Positions 818 through 9,917 of a DNA stretch of 9,917 bases are shown here, one piece after another. The notes below the pieces were generated by a model. That model did not search any database. It was not told the DNA's origin and worked only from the letters and a program-made list of their open reading frames with translations. Position 1 is the first letter of the stretch; each line of letters begins with the position of its first letter. The position numbers were made by a program, and so were the translations under genes. Source of the stretch: a virus; the UHGV virus genome UHGV-0207821; one strand, 5' to 3'.

Positions 818-1201
818 TCAACCAATCAGCTTATAGCGACCATCCCGTGCATTGCGACGTACACGCTCAATCTTGAGGCATAGCGCCGCATCTGGCTTTT
901 TGGGGACAGGTACGCGGCAATATTCAGAAGCTCGAGGAATATTGTTTATCCAGTCGATCACTTCACTTAAATACCAGGCTTTACGCCCTTCCGTAACCTG
1001 TACGCGTTCGGGGAACTCTCCACGAGCCTCAAGGTTTAGCAATGTGCGACGGCTAAGGGTAGTAAGTTCCATCACCTGATTCATATCAACAAGGCGTTCA
1101 CTTAAACGCATTTTGTCAGCAATAGCCTTTAATTCCTCTACTGCTGGATCCGGATACATCATTTCGGCAATTGGCTTAAGGTCATTGTAATGATTCTGCA
1201 T
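818..1201 (-). CDS. AlpA/MerR-like helix-turn-helix DNA-binding protein, function unknown
   Basis: Central motif MELTTLSRRTLLNLEARGEFPERVQVTEGRKAWYLSEVIDWINN has the AlpA/excisionase-type HTH pattern. ATG at 1201 is preceded by AGGGGGA. Lies between the gpD-like gene and cos. Confidence 0.7.
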   Translation of the reverse strand: MQNHYNDLKPIAEMMYPDPAVEELKAIADKMRLSERLVDMNQVMELTTLSRRTLLNLEARGEFPERVQVTEGRKAWYLSEVIDWINNIPRASEYCRVPVPKKPDAALCLKIERVRRNARDGRYKLIG

Positions 1202-3694: not shown

Positions 3695-5109
3695 TACAGT
3701 GGGCGCACATCATCACCGTCAATAGCGATAACGCCGTCTCTTTCCAGCTTGTACAGCCAGCGCCGGAAGTTTTTCATCTCATACCCCAGCTTTTTCATAT
3801 CATCGCGCAACAACGGGATAGTGCATTTATCGCCGCGCTGTGTGCGTGACCGGATACAGCCCCATAGTGCGGCGTGATTCTCCGTCTTGTTTCCGGCCTC
3901 CTCGATGCGCTCCAGTTCAACGGGTGGGCGCGGCTTATCCACAACCACCAGCGACGTGATTAACTCCTTGTCAGCGTCGGTAAAAAGCTCCACCACACGT
4001 AAATCATATGCAGCCTCTTTCAGTTCCTCCGCGTCCTTCATTTTGGTGCAGGAGATAACCAGGGCCTCACTGTCCGCGCCTTCGCGGCGGATCCGGTACT
4101 CAGCGTCCAGAGATGCACGAAATGCACTGGAACCACGCGCCCCTTTTGTTTCATCCTTGCCGGAATGGTGAACCACCAGCACCGTGGCCCCTGTGCGTCG
4201 TTTCAGTTCGTCACATCCACGGATAAACGCCCCCATATCCCGCGCGTCATTTTCATCATTACCGCCAAAGCAACGCGCCAGCGTATCCAGAATAATCATG
4301 CGTACCGGTTTACCCGTTTCCCGTTCAACCTGGCGGGATGCGATAACCATTTCATCAACATCAAACTGGGCTGCAGGAAAAATCGGGCGGTTTACCAGGT
4401 ACAGATTTTTCACCCGTTCATCATTAACGATTTCCCATGCCTTGATACGGCGGGGGACACCAATGCCACCTTCACCGACAACATACATCACCGAACCATG
4501 CGCCACCCTGCGACCTCCCCAGTGGCGACCCGTGGCAACATGACACGCCCAGGAACACGCGAGGAACGATTTATAGGAACCGCTCGCGCCGTATGTGCTG
4601 CACAATGAATTAGCCGGAATCACGCCCTTAACGACATAATCAAGCTGTGTGTCGTACCCTGCAGATCCAATGCTCATTGGTAGCGTGGTTTTTCGCTGGC
4701 TGTATTGCTCGTCAGTAAGTATTTCCCCGCGCTCTGCCTGTTCGCGGATCCGTTGCAGGTAGTCGTGCCAGTTCTCCAGCTTCTGACTGTGCATTCCCTC
4801 AGGGTAATAATTCGCATCCCGTACACCTGCCGCCGCCAGCTTTTGCCCGATGGCATTAATATTTGACGGCTTGATGTGGCCTGCCTTGTACAGTCGGACA
4901 CAATAGCGACCATCGTCGATAATTTTCAGGCCTGCCAGTTCGTCAAGCTGGCTGTCTCCCAGCCATACAGGCGGAACATTGTCGCCAGCAAGTCGCCCGT
5001 CCTGCTCCTGCCATTGTTTCGCGTGCGCCCAGGCATCACTACCCGCAAAAATAATGACTTCGGTCATTTTGTCGTAAGGCTGTTTTTTTAAGTTCGGTGC
5101 GCTTTTCAT
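3694..5109 (-). CDS. Replication initiation helicase, RepA/DnaB-like RecA-fold ATPase with C-terminal winged-helix domain
   Basis: 471 aa. Walker A-like YGASGSYKS, Walker B-like RMIILDT, then VLVVHHSGKD, typical of RepA-like (AAA_25) helicases. C-terminal LGYEMKNFRRWLYKLERDGVIAIDGDD looks winged-helix. SD AGGGG before ATG 5109; ATGA overlap with the upstream ORF. Confidence 0.8.
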   Translation of the reverse strand: MKSAPNLKKQPYDKMTEVIIFAGSDAWAHAKQWQEQDGRLAGDNVPPVWLGDSQLDELAGLKIIDDGRYCVRLYKAGHIKPSNINAIGQKLAAAGVRDANYYPEGMHSQKLENWHDYLQRIREQAERGEILTDEQYSQRKTTLPMSIGSAGYDTQLDYVVKGVIPANSLCSTYGASGSYKSFLACSWACHVATGRHWGGRRVAHGSVMYVVGEGGIGVPRRIKAWEIVNDERVKNLYLVNRPIFPAAQFDVDEMVIASRQVERETGKPVRMIILDTLARCFGGNDENDARDMGAFIRGCDELKRRTGATVLVVHHSGKDETKGARGSSAFRASLDAEYRIRREGADSEALVISCTKMKDAEELKEAAYDLRVVELFTDADKELITSLVVVDKPRPPVELERIEEAGNKTENHAALWGCIRSRTQRGDKCTIPLLRDDMKKLGYEMKNFRRWLYKLERDGVIAIDGDDVRPL

Positions 5110-5870: not shown

Positions 5871-6103
5871 AACCCCCCCCCATTTTCACAATCAGCAATC
5901 AGGATGGCTTTGGCCTCATTCAGCGCCATATCCGCACTAAGTTGCATAACCGCCAGCGAATGAGGAACGAAAGCCCCGGCATATTCTGTTTCACTGGTAG
6001 CGTGCTTATGCGCCCTGTCCGCGATAACAGAAATATCAATCGGCGCATCAATCAGTGTTTTGATTGCTTCGGCGGCTGCGTCCGGACGGGTGTTATTGCA
6101 CAT
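5843..6103 (-). CDS. Hypothetical protein, upstream half of a possible poly-G frameshift pair
   Basis: 86-aa ORF; the G9 tract encodes the GGG in ...ADCENGGGLCVMIVLIP near its C-terminus. A 10-G tract would fuse it in frame to the 5637-5870 ORF. Confidence 0.45.
   Translation of the reverse strand: MCNNTRPDAAAEAIKTLIDAPIDISVIADRAHKHATSETEYAGAFVPHSLAVMQLSADMALNEAKAILIADCENGGGLCVMIVLIP
5873..5881 (-). repeat. Homopolymeric G9 tract (C9 on plus strand) at the junction of two ORFs
   Basis: Nine consecutive C on the plus strand at 5873-5881, inside one ORF and directly upstream of the next ORF's ATG. Confidence 0.9.
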
Positions 6104-6461
6104 GGTGCACCTCCTGGCGAATACGGGCGGCGAATACCATCACGCAGCCAGCCGGGGATTGCTGACGTGCTTCCTGTTCGCTGGTGGCCTCGATGTGAAT
6201 CACGCGCGGTTGTGCCGTGCTCAGGGCGATAAAACGCCAGATAAAATTGTTCTCGCATTTCTGAATAAACAGCGTGTTTTCTTCGCGCCCTTTCCATGTT
6301 GCCGAGATATAGCCCATGTCATTGAGCATCTCGCAGGCATCCACCAGCGTATCAGCGGCTACGTGTACAGTGTTTTTACCGTCAGCCATGCAATCACGGT
6401 GCACCGCCAGGAAGGTGTATATAAATTTAGGGTGAGTTTGGGTATGCTGTGTTCCAGCCAT
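6093..6461 (-). CDS. Hypothetical protein, first gene of the leftward operon
   Basis: 122 aa from ATG 6461 (MAGTQHTQTHPKF...), SD GAGGT about 8 nt upstream. Normal amino-acid composition, unlike the junk-like translation further upstream in the same frame. Confidence 0.5.
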   Translation of the reverse strand: MAGTQHTQTHPKFIYTFLAVHRDCMADGKNTVHVAADTLVDACEMLNDMGYISATWKGREENTLFIQKCENNFIWRFIALSTAQPRVIHIEATSEQEARQQSPAGCVMVFAARIRQEVHHVQ

Positions 6462-6669
6462 AATCGTTACCTCATTTAACGGTTTGGTTAGAAGCCCGGT
6501 TAGTGTTCGCGCACTGCCGGGTTTCGTCGTTTTTATGAATCGCTCATTGTGAGATACATAGCGACCCCCATGTGAGATACACATTATATTGTGGTGATAT
6601 ACATTGCAAGTGTTTTTATATCTCACTTTTGTGTATAGTGATATACACATAACAAATTGGTGATTAACT
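6462..6669. promoter_or_regulatory. Divergent regulatory region with operator-like repeats
   Basis: Four same-orientation copies of GTGA(G/T)ATACA at 6549-6558, 6572-6581, 6593-6602, 6639-6648; inverted partial TATCTCAC at 6619-6626; palindrome GTGTATA-GTGA-TATACAC at 6631-6650 just upstream of the RHH gene. Lies between divergent gene starts at 6461 and 6670. Confidence 0.55.
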
Positions 6670-6972
6670 ATGTCTGTATACAAAAATGCAAAATCGCAAA
6701 TGACAACGATCAGGGTTCCCCACGATGTTATGGAGGGCATGGAATCCGTAAAACTGGACGGCGAAAGCAACGCCGGATTCATAGTAACCGCCATGCGCGG
6801 TGAGATCGCTCGCCGGCAGGCAGAAGGAAGAGGAGAAAATCCCTTGGTTTCTTCGCTCGATGCACTGGCGCAGGTGGAAAAAATCGGTGTCAAAGCAGCC
6901 GAGGAGATCGGGCAACTCGTCACCGTCGCGCGTGAAGAACTCCAGCGGCGCAAGGCCAAAGAACCAGAGTAA
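6670..6972 (+). CDS. Ribbon-helix-helix (CopG/Arc-like) transcriptional regulator, candidate element repressor
   Basis: N-terminal MTTIRVPHDVMEGMESVKLDGESNAGFIVTAMRGEIARRQ fits the RHH strand-helix-G-x-S-x-N-helix pattern. SD GGTGA 6 nt before ATG 6670. Charged, helical composition. Confidence 0.6.
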   Translation: MSVYKNAKSQMTTIRVPHDVMEGMESVKLDGESNAGFIVTAMRGEIARRQAEGRGENPLVSSLDALAQVEKIGVKAAEEIGQLVTVAREELQRRKAKEPE

Positions 6973-7029
6973 TCACCATCAGCGCCGTGGTGTAAGGTAT
7001 TACGGCGCATTGCTATGCAGGACAACACA

Positions 7030-7203
7030 ATGACCGATAAAGAATTGACCAAAACATTATCACCGGCACGGAAAAGACGGCGCAGAAAGATAGAGCATGA
7101 ATCAGAAAGATTCGCGCCATGTGCTTTTGCTCTTGAGAAATTCCTTAAAGAGCACAGGAAAAAGCTCTCGTTGCAAACCTTGGAACGAACCAAATCTGAC
7201 TGA
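7030..7203 (+). CDS. Small basic protein, hypothetical
   Basis: 57 aa from ATG 7030 (SD AGGA 7 nt upstream); very basic (RKRRRRK). Co-oriented with the RHH gene and followed by a terminator. ATG 7015 is an alternative start. Confidence 0.4.
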   Translation: MTDKELTKTLSPARKRRRRKIEHESERFAPCAFALEKFLKEHRKKLSLQTLERTKSD

Positions 7204-7676
7204 TCACATTGCCCACCAGCCGCAAATGTGGCATTGTTGGTGATGCTCATGCGTTGGGGATAACGTGTAGCTTGTGTCGAGGGGCCACCGTAGCGGGTGG
7301 CCTTTGTTTTGCCTGTTATCCGGCAATTGTGGCGCTTCGCCACACGGTTGATATAATCCCACTGCTCAGATTCATTTTTTGCGCAGTAGGTTAATTGTTC
7401 ACAAAGGCGCTCCGGCAACGGGGCGCTTTTTGTTTTTATTAGTTTGTAGAAACCTGACTCAGAGATAATGCTCATATTCTGATTGCCGTCAGGGGGGTAA
7501 GTTAAATTTACTCCCTTTTCATCAAGCATCTGCAACGCTCTGGCGTTAATAATATTGGTTTCACTCCCGCCAATAAGGCCGGAAATAACCGGAATAATTT
7601 CAGCGAAATTTTGCAGATTCTGGTTTTCAGGCCGAACGAAGCCCCGCCCCTGTACAGGCGTATATCCAGTATTCAT
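7204..7676 (-). CDS. Possible Bro-N/antirepressor-like protein; 3' end undefined because the frame has no stop until 6093
   Basis: N-terminal ~125 aa from ATG 7676 look protein-like; NMSIISESGFYKLIKTKSAP resembles the Bro-N/antirepressor signature (weak, from memory). Beyond about 7300 the translation turns Cys/Ser-rich and runs antisense through the RHH operon and the operator region. The 7204 end is arbitrary. Confidence 0.3.
7283..7310 (+). terminator. Rho-independent terminator of the plus-strand regulator operon
   Basis: GGCCACC (7283-7289), loop GTAGCG, GGTGGCC (7296-7302), then TTTGTTTT (7303-7310). Confidence 0.55.
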
Positions 7677-7728: not shown

Positions 7729-7917
7729 TTAGTGAACTGCCTCGCGGCTGTCCTTCCATGCCAGAACTTCGGATAAAGACCAGCCAACGGAACGACCACC
7801 GAGTTTACGCCGTGATGGGAATTGTCCAGTCTTCTCCAGGCGATACCGACATGAGCGGCTCAGGCCTGTAAGTTGCTGACATTCTTTTTCACGTATAAAG
7901 CGATCTGTGCTTAACAC
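7729..7917 (-). CDS. alpA: AlpA-family (excisionase/Vis-like) transcriptional regulator
   Basis: LSTDRFIREKECQQLTGLSRSCRYRLEKTGQFPSRRKLGGRSVGWSLSEVLAWKD is a classic AlpA HTH. Start proposed at GTG 7917, preceded by AAAGGGGGA. The ORF-track ATG at 8025 would add a low-complexity T/N/P-rich extension. Confidence 0.7.
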   Translation of the reverse strand: MLSTDRFIREKECQQLTGLSRSCRYRLEKTGQFPSRRKLGGRSVGWSLSEVLAWKDSREAVH

Positions 7918-8285
7918 AATTCCCCCTTTGTTGTTTCTTAAAGAGTCATTGGGTGGATTATTGGGTTGGGTTGTGTCGGATTGTGTCAGGGTGTTTATGG
8001 AATGGCAAACACTGGTGGCGGTCATTTTACAGAAGTGGGGGTAGTGAGAATAAAAATCCTTTTAATTCATTATGATGTAAAGGCATAAAATTCTGTTTTT
8101 ACGCCTTTTTTACATGTTTTTAAGAGTGATTCGCCAATGTACAAAAAGCCAGTAAAACGACTGAAAATCAACTTTTTAGGGTGTCAGTCAGATGATAATC
8201 AAGTTTGTTCCAGATTGTTCGCCGTTGTTCGTCGTGGTGTCTCGTTGTTTCACGTTGTGTCCGTTCTAAAAAATCGCAAAAAAAA

Positions 8286-9533
8286 TTATATTTCTCTGGC
8301 TATTGGCAGTGTGGTTACGTTTTCGTGAGTGCCTGCCAGTATCTCTAACCGCTCTGTCCACATGTCCAGCGCATTACGTTTCGCATCGAGATAACGGGAG
8401 TGGTTATAGACTCGCTGCATCCCTGGCATCTGGTGAGCGGTGAGTTGTTCGACAATATGCGGATCCACGCCTAAATCGTTCAGCATCGTGGTAAACGTGC
8501 GCCGTATATCGTGTAGTGACCAGTGCGGATGGTTTAATTTTTTGTGCATGAATCTGCCGTATTGCGACACACTGGCTTCCTGTTTCAGTTCCCCGAGTAA
8601 TAGCCCTGTGTGTCTGTTCTGCTCCACCAGCTGCGTGACGAACGGTAAAATGCTTTCCGGTATTGGCCTGAATATGGCGACCTTCGTTTTGCTGTGCTCT
8701 TTCGGTACTGTCCAGAGCATTTCCTTAAAATCCCACTCCCTGATCTCCGATAATCTCAGTTCTCCGGTTCGGCAGCCGAACACAATCAGGAGGCGGATTA
8801 GTGCGCTGTAGTAGGGCGGGAATATTTTTTTATCCAGCGCCTGTAATAATTCGCCAAGTTCTTTGTTGCTCAGCACGCGTTCGCTTATGCCTGGTTTTTT
8901 GCCAACGTCCACCACGTTAAGATCATCCAGAACGTTACTGACTGCGTAGCGACGTTTACGGCAGAACTTAAGCGCCTGTTTACACGCCTGCATCATGTGA
9001 CCAGACGTTACAGGGGATTTTTTGCGTATCCGGTCAAAACAGGCCAGCCAGTGACGTAACTCGCATTTATCCAGTGGCATATTGCCAATATGCTGTATGA
9101 CGTGATTATTCAGGCGGCTTTTCAGGCATACGTAATCGACACGGTTTTCCTTTACGTGCATTTCCAGCCAGTAGCTGATCGCATCACCCACCGTTACCGG
9201 CTTTAGTGCTTCCTGTATGGAGTAATTAAGCTCATGGCGTGGATTTTTTCCTTCTGCCAGCCATGCGCGACACTGTGCCGCTTTTTCCCTGGCTGCTTTC
9301 AGGCTCAGATCAGGATAATTTCCCAGCTTCAGGCGTTCCGGTGATACCTGGCGTCCAGCTCCTGCTCTGTAGGTGAAATACCAGGTTAACAAGCCGCTGG
9401 TGGAATGCCTGACGCTCAGGTTTCCACCGTCATTAAGAAATGTGGTTTTTGGGGCTGGTGTGCCGTTGATTTTTCTTAGCTGTGTATCGCTCAGTTTGTT
9501 AAGTGCTCTGCTCATAATTTTGAATCCGGTCAT
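8286..9533 (-). CDS. int: Tyrosine site-specific integrase, P4-family type
   Basis: N-terminal LSDTQLRKI...DGGNLSVRHS...LLTWYFTYR typical of P4-family integrases; C-terminal catalytic region with HDIRRTF and VYNHSRY (tyrosine nucleophile). ATG at 9533; the ORF track starts at GTG 9536, and ATG 9515 is also possible. Confidence 0.9.
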   Translation of the reverse strand: MTGFKIMSRALNKLSDTQLRKINGTPAPKTTFLNDGGNLSVRHSTSGLLTWYFTYRAGAGRQVSPERLKLGNYPDLSLKAAREKAAQCRAWLAEGKNPRHELNYSIQEALKPVTVGDAISYWLEMHVKENRVDYVCLKSRLNNHVIQHIGNMPLDKCELRHWLACFDRIRKKSPVTSGHMMQACKQALKFCRKRRYAVSNVLDDLNVVDVGKKPGISERVLSNKELGELLQALDKKIFPPYYSALIRLLIVFGCRTGELRLSEIREWDFKEMLWTVPKEHSKTKVAIFRPIPESILPFVTQLVEQNRHTGLLLGELKQEASVSQYGRFMHKKLNHPHWSLHDIRRTFTTMLNDLGVDPHIVEQLTAHQMPGMQRVYNHSRYLDAKRNALDMWTERLEILAGTHENVTTLPIAREI

Positions 9534-9538
9534 CACAA

Positions 9539-9562
9539 TTAACTACACCATTAACTACACCG
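9539..9562. repeat. Perfect 12-bp tandem repeat (x2) abutting the integrase start
   Basis: TTAACTACACC(A) at 9539-9550 and TTAACTACACC(G) at 9551-9562. Confidence 0.8.
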
Positions 9563-9586
9563 ATCATTGCACAAGGGGGTACAACG

Positions 9587-9606
9587 TGGAACAAGTTGGA
9601 ACAAGA
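9587..9606. repeat. 10-bp tandem repeat TGGAACAAG(T/A) x2 in the integrase upstream region
   Basis: TGGAACAAGT at 9587-9596 and TGGAACAAGA at 9597-9606, one helical turn apart. Confidence 0.7.
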
Positions 9607-9720
9607 AAAATTGCAATGAGCTTAAAAATCAAAAACATAATGAACAACGTGGCACATTATGAAACAGCAAAAAACACTAATTTATAAAATCACGATATTA
9701 ATAATGTAACTTATATTTTC

Positions 9721-9773
9721 GTGAAATCTGTCACTGAAGAAAATTGGCAACTAAAGGTTAAAACCGTTATAAC
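9721..9773 (+). promoter_or_regulatory. Candidate sigma70 promoter with CRP-like half-sites for the downstream sRNA
   Basis: GTGA-N6-TCAC at 9721-9734 (CRP core TGTGA-N6-TCACA); -35-like TTGGCA 9744-9749; 18-bp spacer; -10-like TATAAC 9768-9773; predicted start near 9780. Confidence 0.4.
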
Positions 9774-9779
9774 ACAGTC

Positions 9780-9873
9780 ACCGGCGCAGAGGAGACAATG
9801 CCGGATTTAAGACGCGGATGCACTGCTGTGTGTACTGTAGAGTCTGGCGGATGTCGACAGACTCTATTTTTTT
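9780..9873 (+). ncRNA. mcaS: About 94-nt sRNA with four GGA motifs, McaS(IsrA)-like
   Basis: Promoter-to-terminator unit with no ORF. 5' stem-loop CCGGC...GCCGG; GGA motifs in single-stranded or loop contexts (GAGGAGA, CCGGATT, GCGGATG twice); terminal hairpin plus U7. Sequence matches my recollection of E. coli McaS, a CsrA-binding sRNA; not verifiable here. Confidence 0.55.
9838..9873 (+). terminator. Rho-independent terminator of the sRNA
   Basis: TAGAGTCTG (9838-9846) pairs with CAGACTCTA (9858-9866); 11-nt loop containing GGA; followed by TTTTTTT (9867-9873). Confidence 0.7.
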
Positions 9874-9917
9874 ATGCAGTTTTAACTTTGCAGATAGCCG
9901 CATTCTCGCCGGAATTG

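Follow-up and report, generated by a model that had tools for sequence, protein, structure and literature searches.

An integrative element upstream of mcaS

The window analysed here, the whole 9,917-nt stretch of virus genome UHGV-0207821, carries on its minus strand the integrase gene (int, 8286..9515) and alpA (7729..7917) of an island of ~10.4 kb that lies between smrA and the gene for the McaS sRNA (9780-9875, plus strand; Rfam, 118 bits). The product of int, with the start assigned by PGAP, is a P4-type heterobivalent tyrosine integrase of 409 amino acids, comprising an N-terminal arm-binding domain (PF13356, Arm-DNA-bind_3; residues 8-95, E = 3e-18), homologous to PDB 3JTZ and 3JU0, and a C-terminal tyrosine-recombinase catalytic domain (PF00589; residues 214-375, E = 7e-17). 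The alpA gene, also called by PGAP, encodes a 62-amino-acid winged-helix protein of the AlpA/Vis family (PF05930, E = 2.7e-18). Further island genes encode Icd-like and DUF4222 proteins, a RepA/AAA_25 helicase, SSB, gpE-like capsid and gpD-like decoration proteins, a second AlpA-domain protein, and a Nu1-like TerS. A 527-amino-acid open reading frame at 6093-7676 (minus strand) has a low-complexity translation and is almost certainly spurious; PGAP places small genes there instead, including a plus-strand gene of the YlcI/YnfO family at about 6670-6972 that has no Pfam hit.

The gene content of the element identifies it as a phage-inducible chromosomal island (PICI) like EcCICFT073, the prototype of the Gram-negative PICIs (Fillol-Salom et al. 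2018). Its size (PICIs being about 10-15 kb), the co-oriented order of integrase, alpA, replication, and packaging genes, the lack of lysis and tail genes, and the specific att site are those of this group. Assignment to the capsid-forming PICIs was considered and rejected, the island being without portal, protease, connector, and TerL genes; the capsid-forming type is represented by two of the related islands discussed below (L003 and L005).

The right boundary of the island was placed by a three-way comparison of the window with the empty site in K-12 (L002; attB) and with the other junction, taken from strain VG12A2 (L001; attL). The only sequence common to attB, attL (L001 9992-10001), and attR (window 9690-9699) is the 10-bp crossover core TCACGATATT, and alignments to islands at other sites end at about 9690. 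Because the three sites share just this core, the 174 bp between it and int (9516-9689) form the int-proximal arm of attR/attP, and the repeats that are our subject lie inside the island; the original prediction had offered part of an att region as one possible role for them, and in this it was right. The attP core that can be reconstructed from window 9680-9710 and L001 9985-10020, TTTATAAAA-TCACGAT-ATTTATAA, is an imperfect inverted repeat (TTATAAA) around a spacer of ~7 bp. Similar half-sites with different spacers are found in L003 (GATAAAAT..TTTTATC) and in L004. These half-sites look like core-type integrase sites, with the spacer setting the choice of target.

Of 5,426 complete E. coli genomes, 68 have the island at the smrA|mcaS site, and the query matches most of the remainder through its chromosomal mcaS-abgR part only. 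The window was inspected for a tRNA or tmRNA target and contains none, the flanking RNA gene being that of McaS (McaS/IsrA). An insertion site between smrA and mcaS, about 80 bp upstream of the latter, may be new for this satellite family, no prior description of it having been found in the work we consulted. A CRP-like site, GTGAAATCTGTCAC (about 9729-9745), remains on the mcaS side of the junction, and all chromosomal sequence further upstream of mcaS is replaced by island DNA, so that regulation of mcaS might be altered by the insertion. The abgR gene reads toward int through the mcaS terminator.

Repeats in the two arms of the attachment site

The sequence ATTAACTACACC occurs at 9538-9549 and again at 9550-9561, a tandem duplication identical at 12 of 12 positions; a perfect 12-bp duplication at lag 12 appeared in none of 500 dinucleotide-preserving shuffles of the window. 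This pair, hereafter motif A (9538..9561, minus strand; GGTGTAGTTAAT GGTGTAGTTAAT in the sense of int), had been described as a perfect duplication that begins at 9539 and abuts the integrase start codon. The perfection of the repeat stands, with its start one base further to the left. The abutment is true only of the longest int open reading frame, which starts at GTG 9536 or ATG 9533. PGAP places the start at ATG 9515 (strain VG12A2, 99.8% identical), and in L004 and L006 the upstream ATG is put out of frame by a 1-nt indel; ATG 9515 is thus the conserved start, and 22 nt separate it from the near end of the pair, which lies upstream. A Salmonella relative has its integrase start called inside the tandem repeat (L014 10001-10050), giving an N-terminus, VWSVVWS..., that is the translated 12-mer and an annotation artefact of a kind that tandem arm sites can cause.

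The second repeat, TGGAACAAG, is found at 9587-9595 and 9597-9605 as an exact 9-bp repeat with a 10-bp period. This is the 10-bp tandem pair reported earlier, although it begins 25 bp past the end of the 12-bp pair (49 bp from start to start) and not about 40 bp further upstream. By itself it is not significant, since 16 of the 500 shuffles match it at lag 10 and 122 at one or another lag from 8 to 15. Its two copies are, however, the best-matching members of a series of four units with 10-bp phasing (9571..9610, minus strand; ACAAGGGGGT ACAACGTGGA ACAAGTTGGA ACAAGAAAAA on the plus strand), the int-sense unit of which is TTGTTC; we refer to this array as motif B. Beyond it lie an A/T-rich spacer (9616..9641) containing TGAT in the sense of int (ATCA, 9628-9631, on the plus strand) and, adjoining the core, a second, weaker 10-bp-phased array (9642..9681, minus strand; GAACAACGTG GCACATTATG AAACAGCAAA AAACACTAAT). 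The spacer is possibly a bending or IHF-type site, an assignment kept as speculative because the full IHF consensus WATCAANNNNTTR is unmatched in most arms.

BLAST against E. coli genomes, together with look-ups of integrase homologues, yielded 14 further elements whose integrases are 53-87% identical to that of the window. The 15 elements (53-100% identical with the window included) occupy eight insertion sites in all, among them phoQ|roxA (O157:H7, Shigella, and CFT073), clpS|cspD (related islands including L004 and L006), tqsA, the rcnR/rcnB region (E. coli and Salmonella), the dpp region (Salmonella), and yhdJ|fis (E. coli and Citrobacter). All 15 carry a motif of 12-bp period, GGTGnnGTnAnT in the sense of int, located 14-58 nt upstream of int and present in two copies, with three in L008. 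Across 10 non-redundant arms, no gap is needed to align the 80 nt on the upstream side of the pair, and the TTGTTC-type units and the TGAT of the spacer are held at fixed columns; the lag-10 autocorrelation of these arms has z = 10.4 in the 60 nt adjoining the 12-bp pair and z = 4.9 nearer the core (the -170..-61 segment). The clpS|cspD islands have in addition a third, degenerate A-like copy in the proximal arm about 35 bp from the core (GGTGTAGGTATC at 14270-14285 of L004; GGTGTATCTGTC in the same region of L006), which the window is without.

The same repeats recur at the other end of the element. Alignment with that end once it was sequenced had been suggested as a check on the repeats, and the distal junction in L001 carries an identical, identically oriented 24-bp pair (ATTAACTACACCATTAACTACACC, 10073-10096) 71 bp from the core, followed by phased units (GGAACAAATAGACACAAG; GGAACAA/ACACAAG). 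Since the distal end has the same pair and units, the excised attP would have a 12-bp pair and phased units on both sides of the core. A distal pair in the same orientation, again followed by phased units, is present in all seven further islands whose distal junction could be inspected (L004, L006, L013, L012, L016, L017, and that of CFT073). Repeats that flank the core on both sides and are distinct from it in sequence are what is expected of arm-type sites.

This distribution bears on one rival account of the repeats, that they are chance or slippage duplications without sequence-specific function, or that they act on int translation through the RNA only. The 10-bp pair taken alone is within chance, motif A would be part of the 5' untranslated region if transcription starts upstream of it, and an action on int mRNA has been suggested for P4 Vis. 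We nevertheless regard this account as highly improbable: the perfect 12-bp duplication was never reproduced by shuffling; the position, period, and number of the pair are kept in relatives with integrases down to 53% identical, and in P4; a second pair is found on the distal arm, which lies beyond any int transcript; and RNA-level features (a mini-ORF and Shine-Dalgarno-like sequences) are not conserved among the relatives.

Among the closest known systems, satellite phage P4 offers an annotated precedent. P4 integrates into a tRNA-Leu gene, whereas this island targets an intergenic site upstream of mcaS, and the two belong to different satellite families. They share a PF13356 arm-binding integrase and a small AlpA/Vis-family regulator, and in both, int abuts attP and reads away from it. 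The P4 GenBank record annotates tandem 12-bp pairs as "attP arm sequence repeat" at 3942-3965 and 4151-4174, with the core at 4078-4097. The proximal P4 pair is 15 nt upstream of the int start (22 nt in the window), the core follows 112 bp further on (128 bp in the window), and the second, co-oriented pair is 53 bp past the core (71 bp in this island). On the core side of the proximal pair, P4 has four TnnTCC units with an exact 10-bp period (TCGTCCtgcg TCTTCCgagg TTGTCCgttg AAATCCggat). The 12-mers themselves are unrelated (TTGGGGGCATAA in P4 against GGTGTAGTTAAT here), and in P4 two further copies stand singly, one in inverted orientation across the int start codon and the other within int; the window contains no such A-like copy at two or fewer mismatches. 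The att site of the island has the P4 architecture with different site sequences. The repeats thus belong to a recombination site, real and functional-looking but ordinary, of the long-known kind represented by the P4-type attP arm; they suggest no unusual regulatory device and do not overturn current understanding.

The int-alpA module is also closely related to that of EcCICFT073. The integrase of EcCICFT073 is of the L003 type and about 87% identical to that of the window, its AlpA departs from the window protein at 3 of 62 residues, for about 95% identity, and it has the motif A pair, the motif B units, and the gene order in common with the present island. It differs in its insertion site (phoQ|roxA, against smrA|mcaS here) and in its core. 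In the published work that we consulted on EcCICFT073, we found no description of its arm repeats. The complete attP layout obtained here for islands of this type, comprising the core, two 12-bp pairs, and phased arrays, is a modest new point.

Integrase residues that covary with the 12-bp motif

Which protein would read the 12-mer is indicated by the natural variants of both. Integrase residue 36 is arginine in elements with GT(T/C)AAT and lysine in those with GTCAGT or GTCACT, and residue 48 is threonine or serine where motif position 6 is A, and lysine or arginine where it is G; both rules hold in 15 of 15 elements. In an AlphaFold2 model of the integrase (mean pLDDT 83; about 88 for residues 31-50), residues 33-37 and 43-49 form neighbouring beta-strands in the PF13356 domain. 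Structures have been solved for homologous arm-binding domains, those of the HPI and HAI7 integrases, and it is from the modelled strands and this homology that DNA-contact residues are predicted.

The most informative comparison is between L003 and L005, which have AlpA proteins 100% identical and identical distal-arm flanks. Their integrases are 77% identical over the N-terminus, where R36K is among the changes, and 95% identical over the rest, and the two arms of L005, separated by about 15 kb, both show GTCACT/GTCATT instead of GTTAAT/GTCAAT. Motif A variants thus match on the two arms and vary while AlpA stays the same. For the proximal copies, covariation could be explained by linkage, because motif A adjoins the stretch of int coding for the N-terminus; no such linkage can explain the copies of the distal arm, which argues that the 12-mer is read by the integrase. 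The independent changes behind the covariation are few, some two or three for each residue, and the N-terminal strand of L011 (LSARV) is divergent although its 12-mer is that of the window.

The reading of the 12-bp pair as two integrase arm-type sites, an option raised in the original prediction, is well supported by the presence of the pair on both arms, by its covariation with integrase residues 36 and 48, and by the same layout in the annotated P4 site. From this we infer physical binding of the following kind. The adjacent 12-bp copies would be bound by the N-terminal domains of integrase molecules whose C-terminal domains work on the core TCACGATATT at a distance of 128 bp, and the co-oriented second pair 71 bp past the core would let integrase molecules span the core and the two arms and so assemble the recombination complex, in the manner of P4 and lambda. 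The pairings of R36/K36 with motif position 11 and of T48/K48 with position 6 are new, and the natural variants offer ready-made predictions for integrase arm-site specificity.

The 10-bp-phased units, AlpA, and int expression

Units resembling motif B are found outside the att arms as well. Just downstream of the int stop codon and upstream of alpA, an array of six 10-bp-phased B-type units (8201..8262, minus strand; in the sense of int ACACAACGTG AAACAACGAG ACACCACGAC GAACAACGGC GAACAATCTG GAACAAACTT) is inverted relative to the arm units, and two to three B-like phased units (GACACAATCC GACACAACCC; 7961..7990, minus strand) lie about 50-70 nt upstream of the alpA start, with an equivalent in L003 and L005. 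The window contains 13 GAACAA hexamers, six of them placed within these arrays with a spacing of exactly 10 bp. EcCICFT073 has the same arrays, that of six units lying in its int-alpA intergenic region.

An AlpA-family excision factor is the most likely protein to bind the 10-bp units. P4 Vis gives footprints in attP (PMC2603039). Operators of directionality factors such as coliphage 186 Apl and lambda Xis are typically direct repeats about one helical turn apart, like the B units, and some of these factors bind att as well as a promoter, as Apl does and as we propose for AlpA (PMC7498355). Apl and Xis belong to protein families different from that of AlpA. AlpA, a candidate excision (directionality) factor and activator of the island, would bind head to tail, one monomer per helical turn, to TTGTTC units that adjoin each 12-bp pair and recur upstream of alpA; its binding would bend the arm for excision and also act at the alpA promoter. 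In EcCIMP1, alpA is required for excision.

A competing assignment gives both repeat classes to the integrase as arm-type sites, with no AlpA bound there and the B units representing degenerate sites for the integrase N-terminal domain or sites for a host bending protein. In its favour, the B units keep a strict register to motif A in all arms, are retained with AlpA types of only 54-58% identity, and have an ACA core in common with motif A. An attempt to assign the B units to AlpA by covariation (an RY or RF recognition helix with GTTC against GTCC/GTCT) also failed: the helix variants do not track the B variants cleanly, the pattern being broken by L014, L016, L017, and P4 Vis. This assignment has more difficulty with the phased array upstream of alpA, which is identical in kind, inverted, and far from any core site, and which in EcCICFT073 belongs to an int-alpA region that includes a promoter reported to respond to AlpA (PMC6092414). 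The one-turn direct repeats typical of directionality-factor operators (PMC7498355) and the Vis footprints cited above also count against it, as does the failure of B variants to follow integrase residues 36 and 48. We consider it unlikely, and retain AlpA as the probable partner of the B units.

The arm is the sole island DNA upstream of int, so any island promoter for int must fall within 9516-9689, and for the same reason occupancy of integrase or AlpA sites is expected to feed back on int. A consensus scan of the int strand of the arm revealed no sigma-70 promoter, and a weight-matrix scan of the 10 arms in common register revealed none that scored above shuffled expectation and none that was positionally conserved (best window score 7.1, against a mean shuffled maximum of 8.8). 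The best candidate shared by the arms, a -10 element inside the first motif A copy (TGTAGT), was discarded for its poor score. Feedback by the integrase has parallels: the integrase of PAI I536 represses its own promoter, and in P4 the integrase and the directionality factor both repress int. In KplE1 (CPS-53), the int promoter of the attL/intS/TorI region lies inside the att arm and is overlapped by integrase and directionality-factor sites, and both proteins repress int (PMC2951348); KplE1 differs from the present island in its integrase lineage, in its site sequences, and in that its promoter and sites were mapped experimentally, whereas here the promoter was not located. Feedback on int expression is therefore a reasonable expectation for this arm by analogy.

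Control of int by AlpA, which the original prediction had put forward for these repeats, fared less well. In EcCICFT073, where AlpA was tested on both PalpA and Pint, it activates its own promoter and has no effect on a Pint-lacZ fusion (PMC6092414), and the arm there has the same motif A pair, unit layout, and register; we find this reading doubtful. A rival on these lines would make the repeats AlpA-dependent activator sites of the int promoter, after the CP4-57 model in which AlpA turns on intA, with transcriptional control of int, and not intasome architecture, as their main role. Besides the EcCICFT073 result, such a scheme has to contend with the same repeats on the distal arm, about 10 kb from int, which cannot be int promoter elements, and with the variation of motif A while AlpA stays identical. 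It draws on the lack of a predicted constitutive sigma-70 promoter in the arm, which would fit an activator-dependent promoter, on the CP4-57 AlpA, cited in a passage of PMC6092414 as raising int expression, and on ICEMlSym, in which RdfS stimulates intS transcription from attP-bound sites. On balance we judge it very unlikely.

The model as a whole, with arm-type 12-mers for the integrase, 10-bp operators for an AlpA-family protein, and feedback on int, seems to us quite probable. AlpA has been described as master activator of EcCICFT073-type islands, for which a dedicated excisionase is not known. A more ambitious and tentative proposal, to which we would give rather less than even chances, is that the AlpA of these islands is a dual-purpose directionality factor and that the pairings of residues 36 and 48 with motif bases amount to a PF13356 recognition code. 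AlpA would then polymerise, one monomer per turn, on the GAACAA-type units of both att arms and of its own promoter, coupling excision to induction. If true, the code could be used to predict or reprogram arm specificity; the prediction that AlpA is the missing excisionase of Gram-negative PICIs is new and now testable.

A different partner for the B units is also conceivable. The second protein with a Phage_AlpA domain (127 amino acids; 818-1201, minus strand; PF05930, E = 1.4e-8), encoded between the decoration-protein and terS genes, could be the true excision factor, and hence the protein that occupies these units, or a separate regulator; EcCIMP1 has both alpA and alpA_1.

Control of alpA may differ among the relatives. 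Those with an extra open reading frame of ~240 amino acids between int and alpA have, directly before alpA, a GC-rich hairpin followed by a T-run that resembles a terminator (L008 11990-12030; L016 about 12010-12052; L017 about 12005-12046). In these three islands the hairpin loop contains two GAAC units 10 bp apart, with two GTGATATCAC palindromes upstream, an arrangement that may reflect a different mode of alpA control, possibly antitermination.
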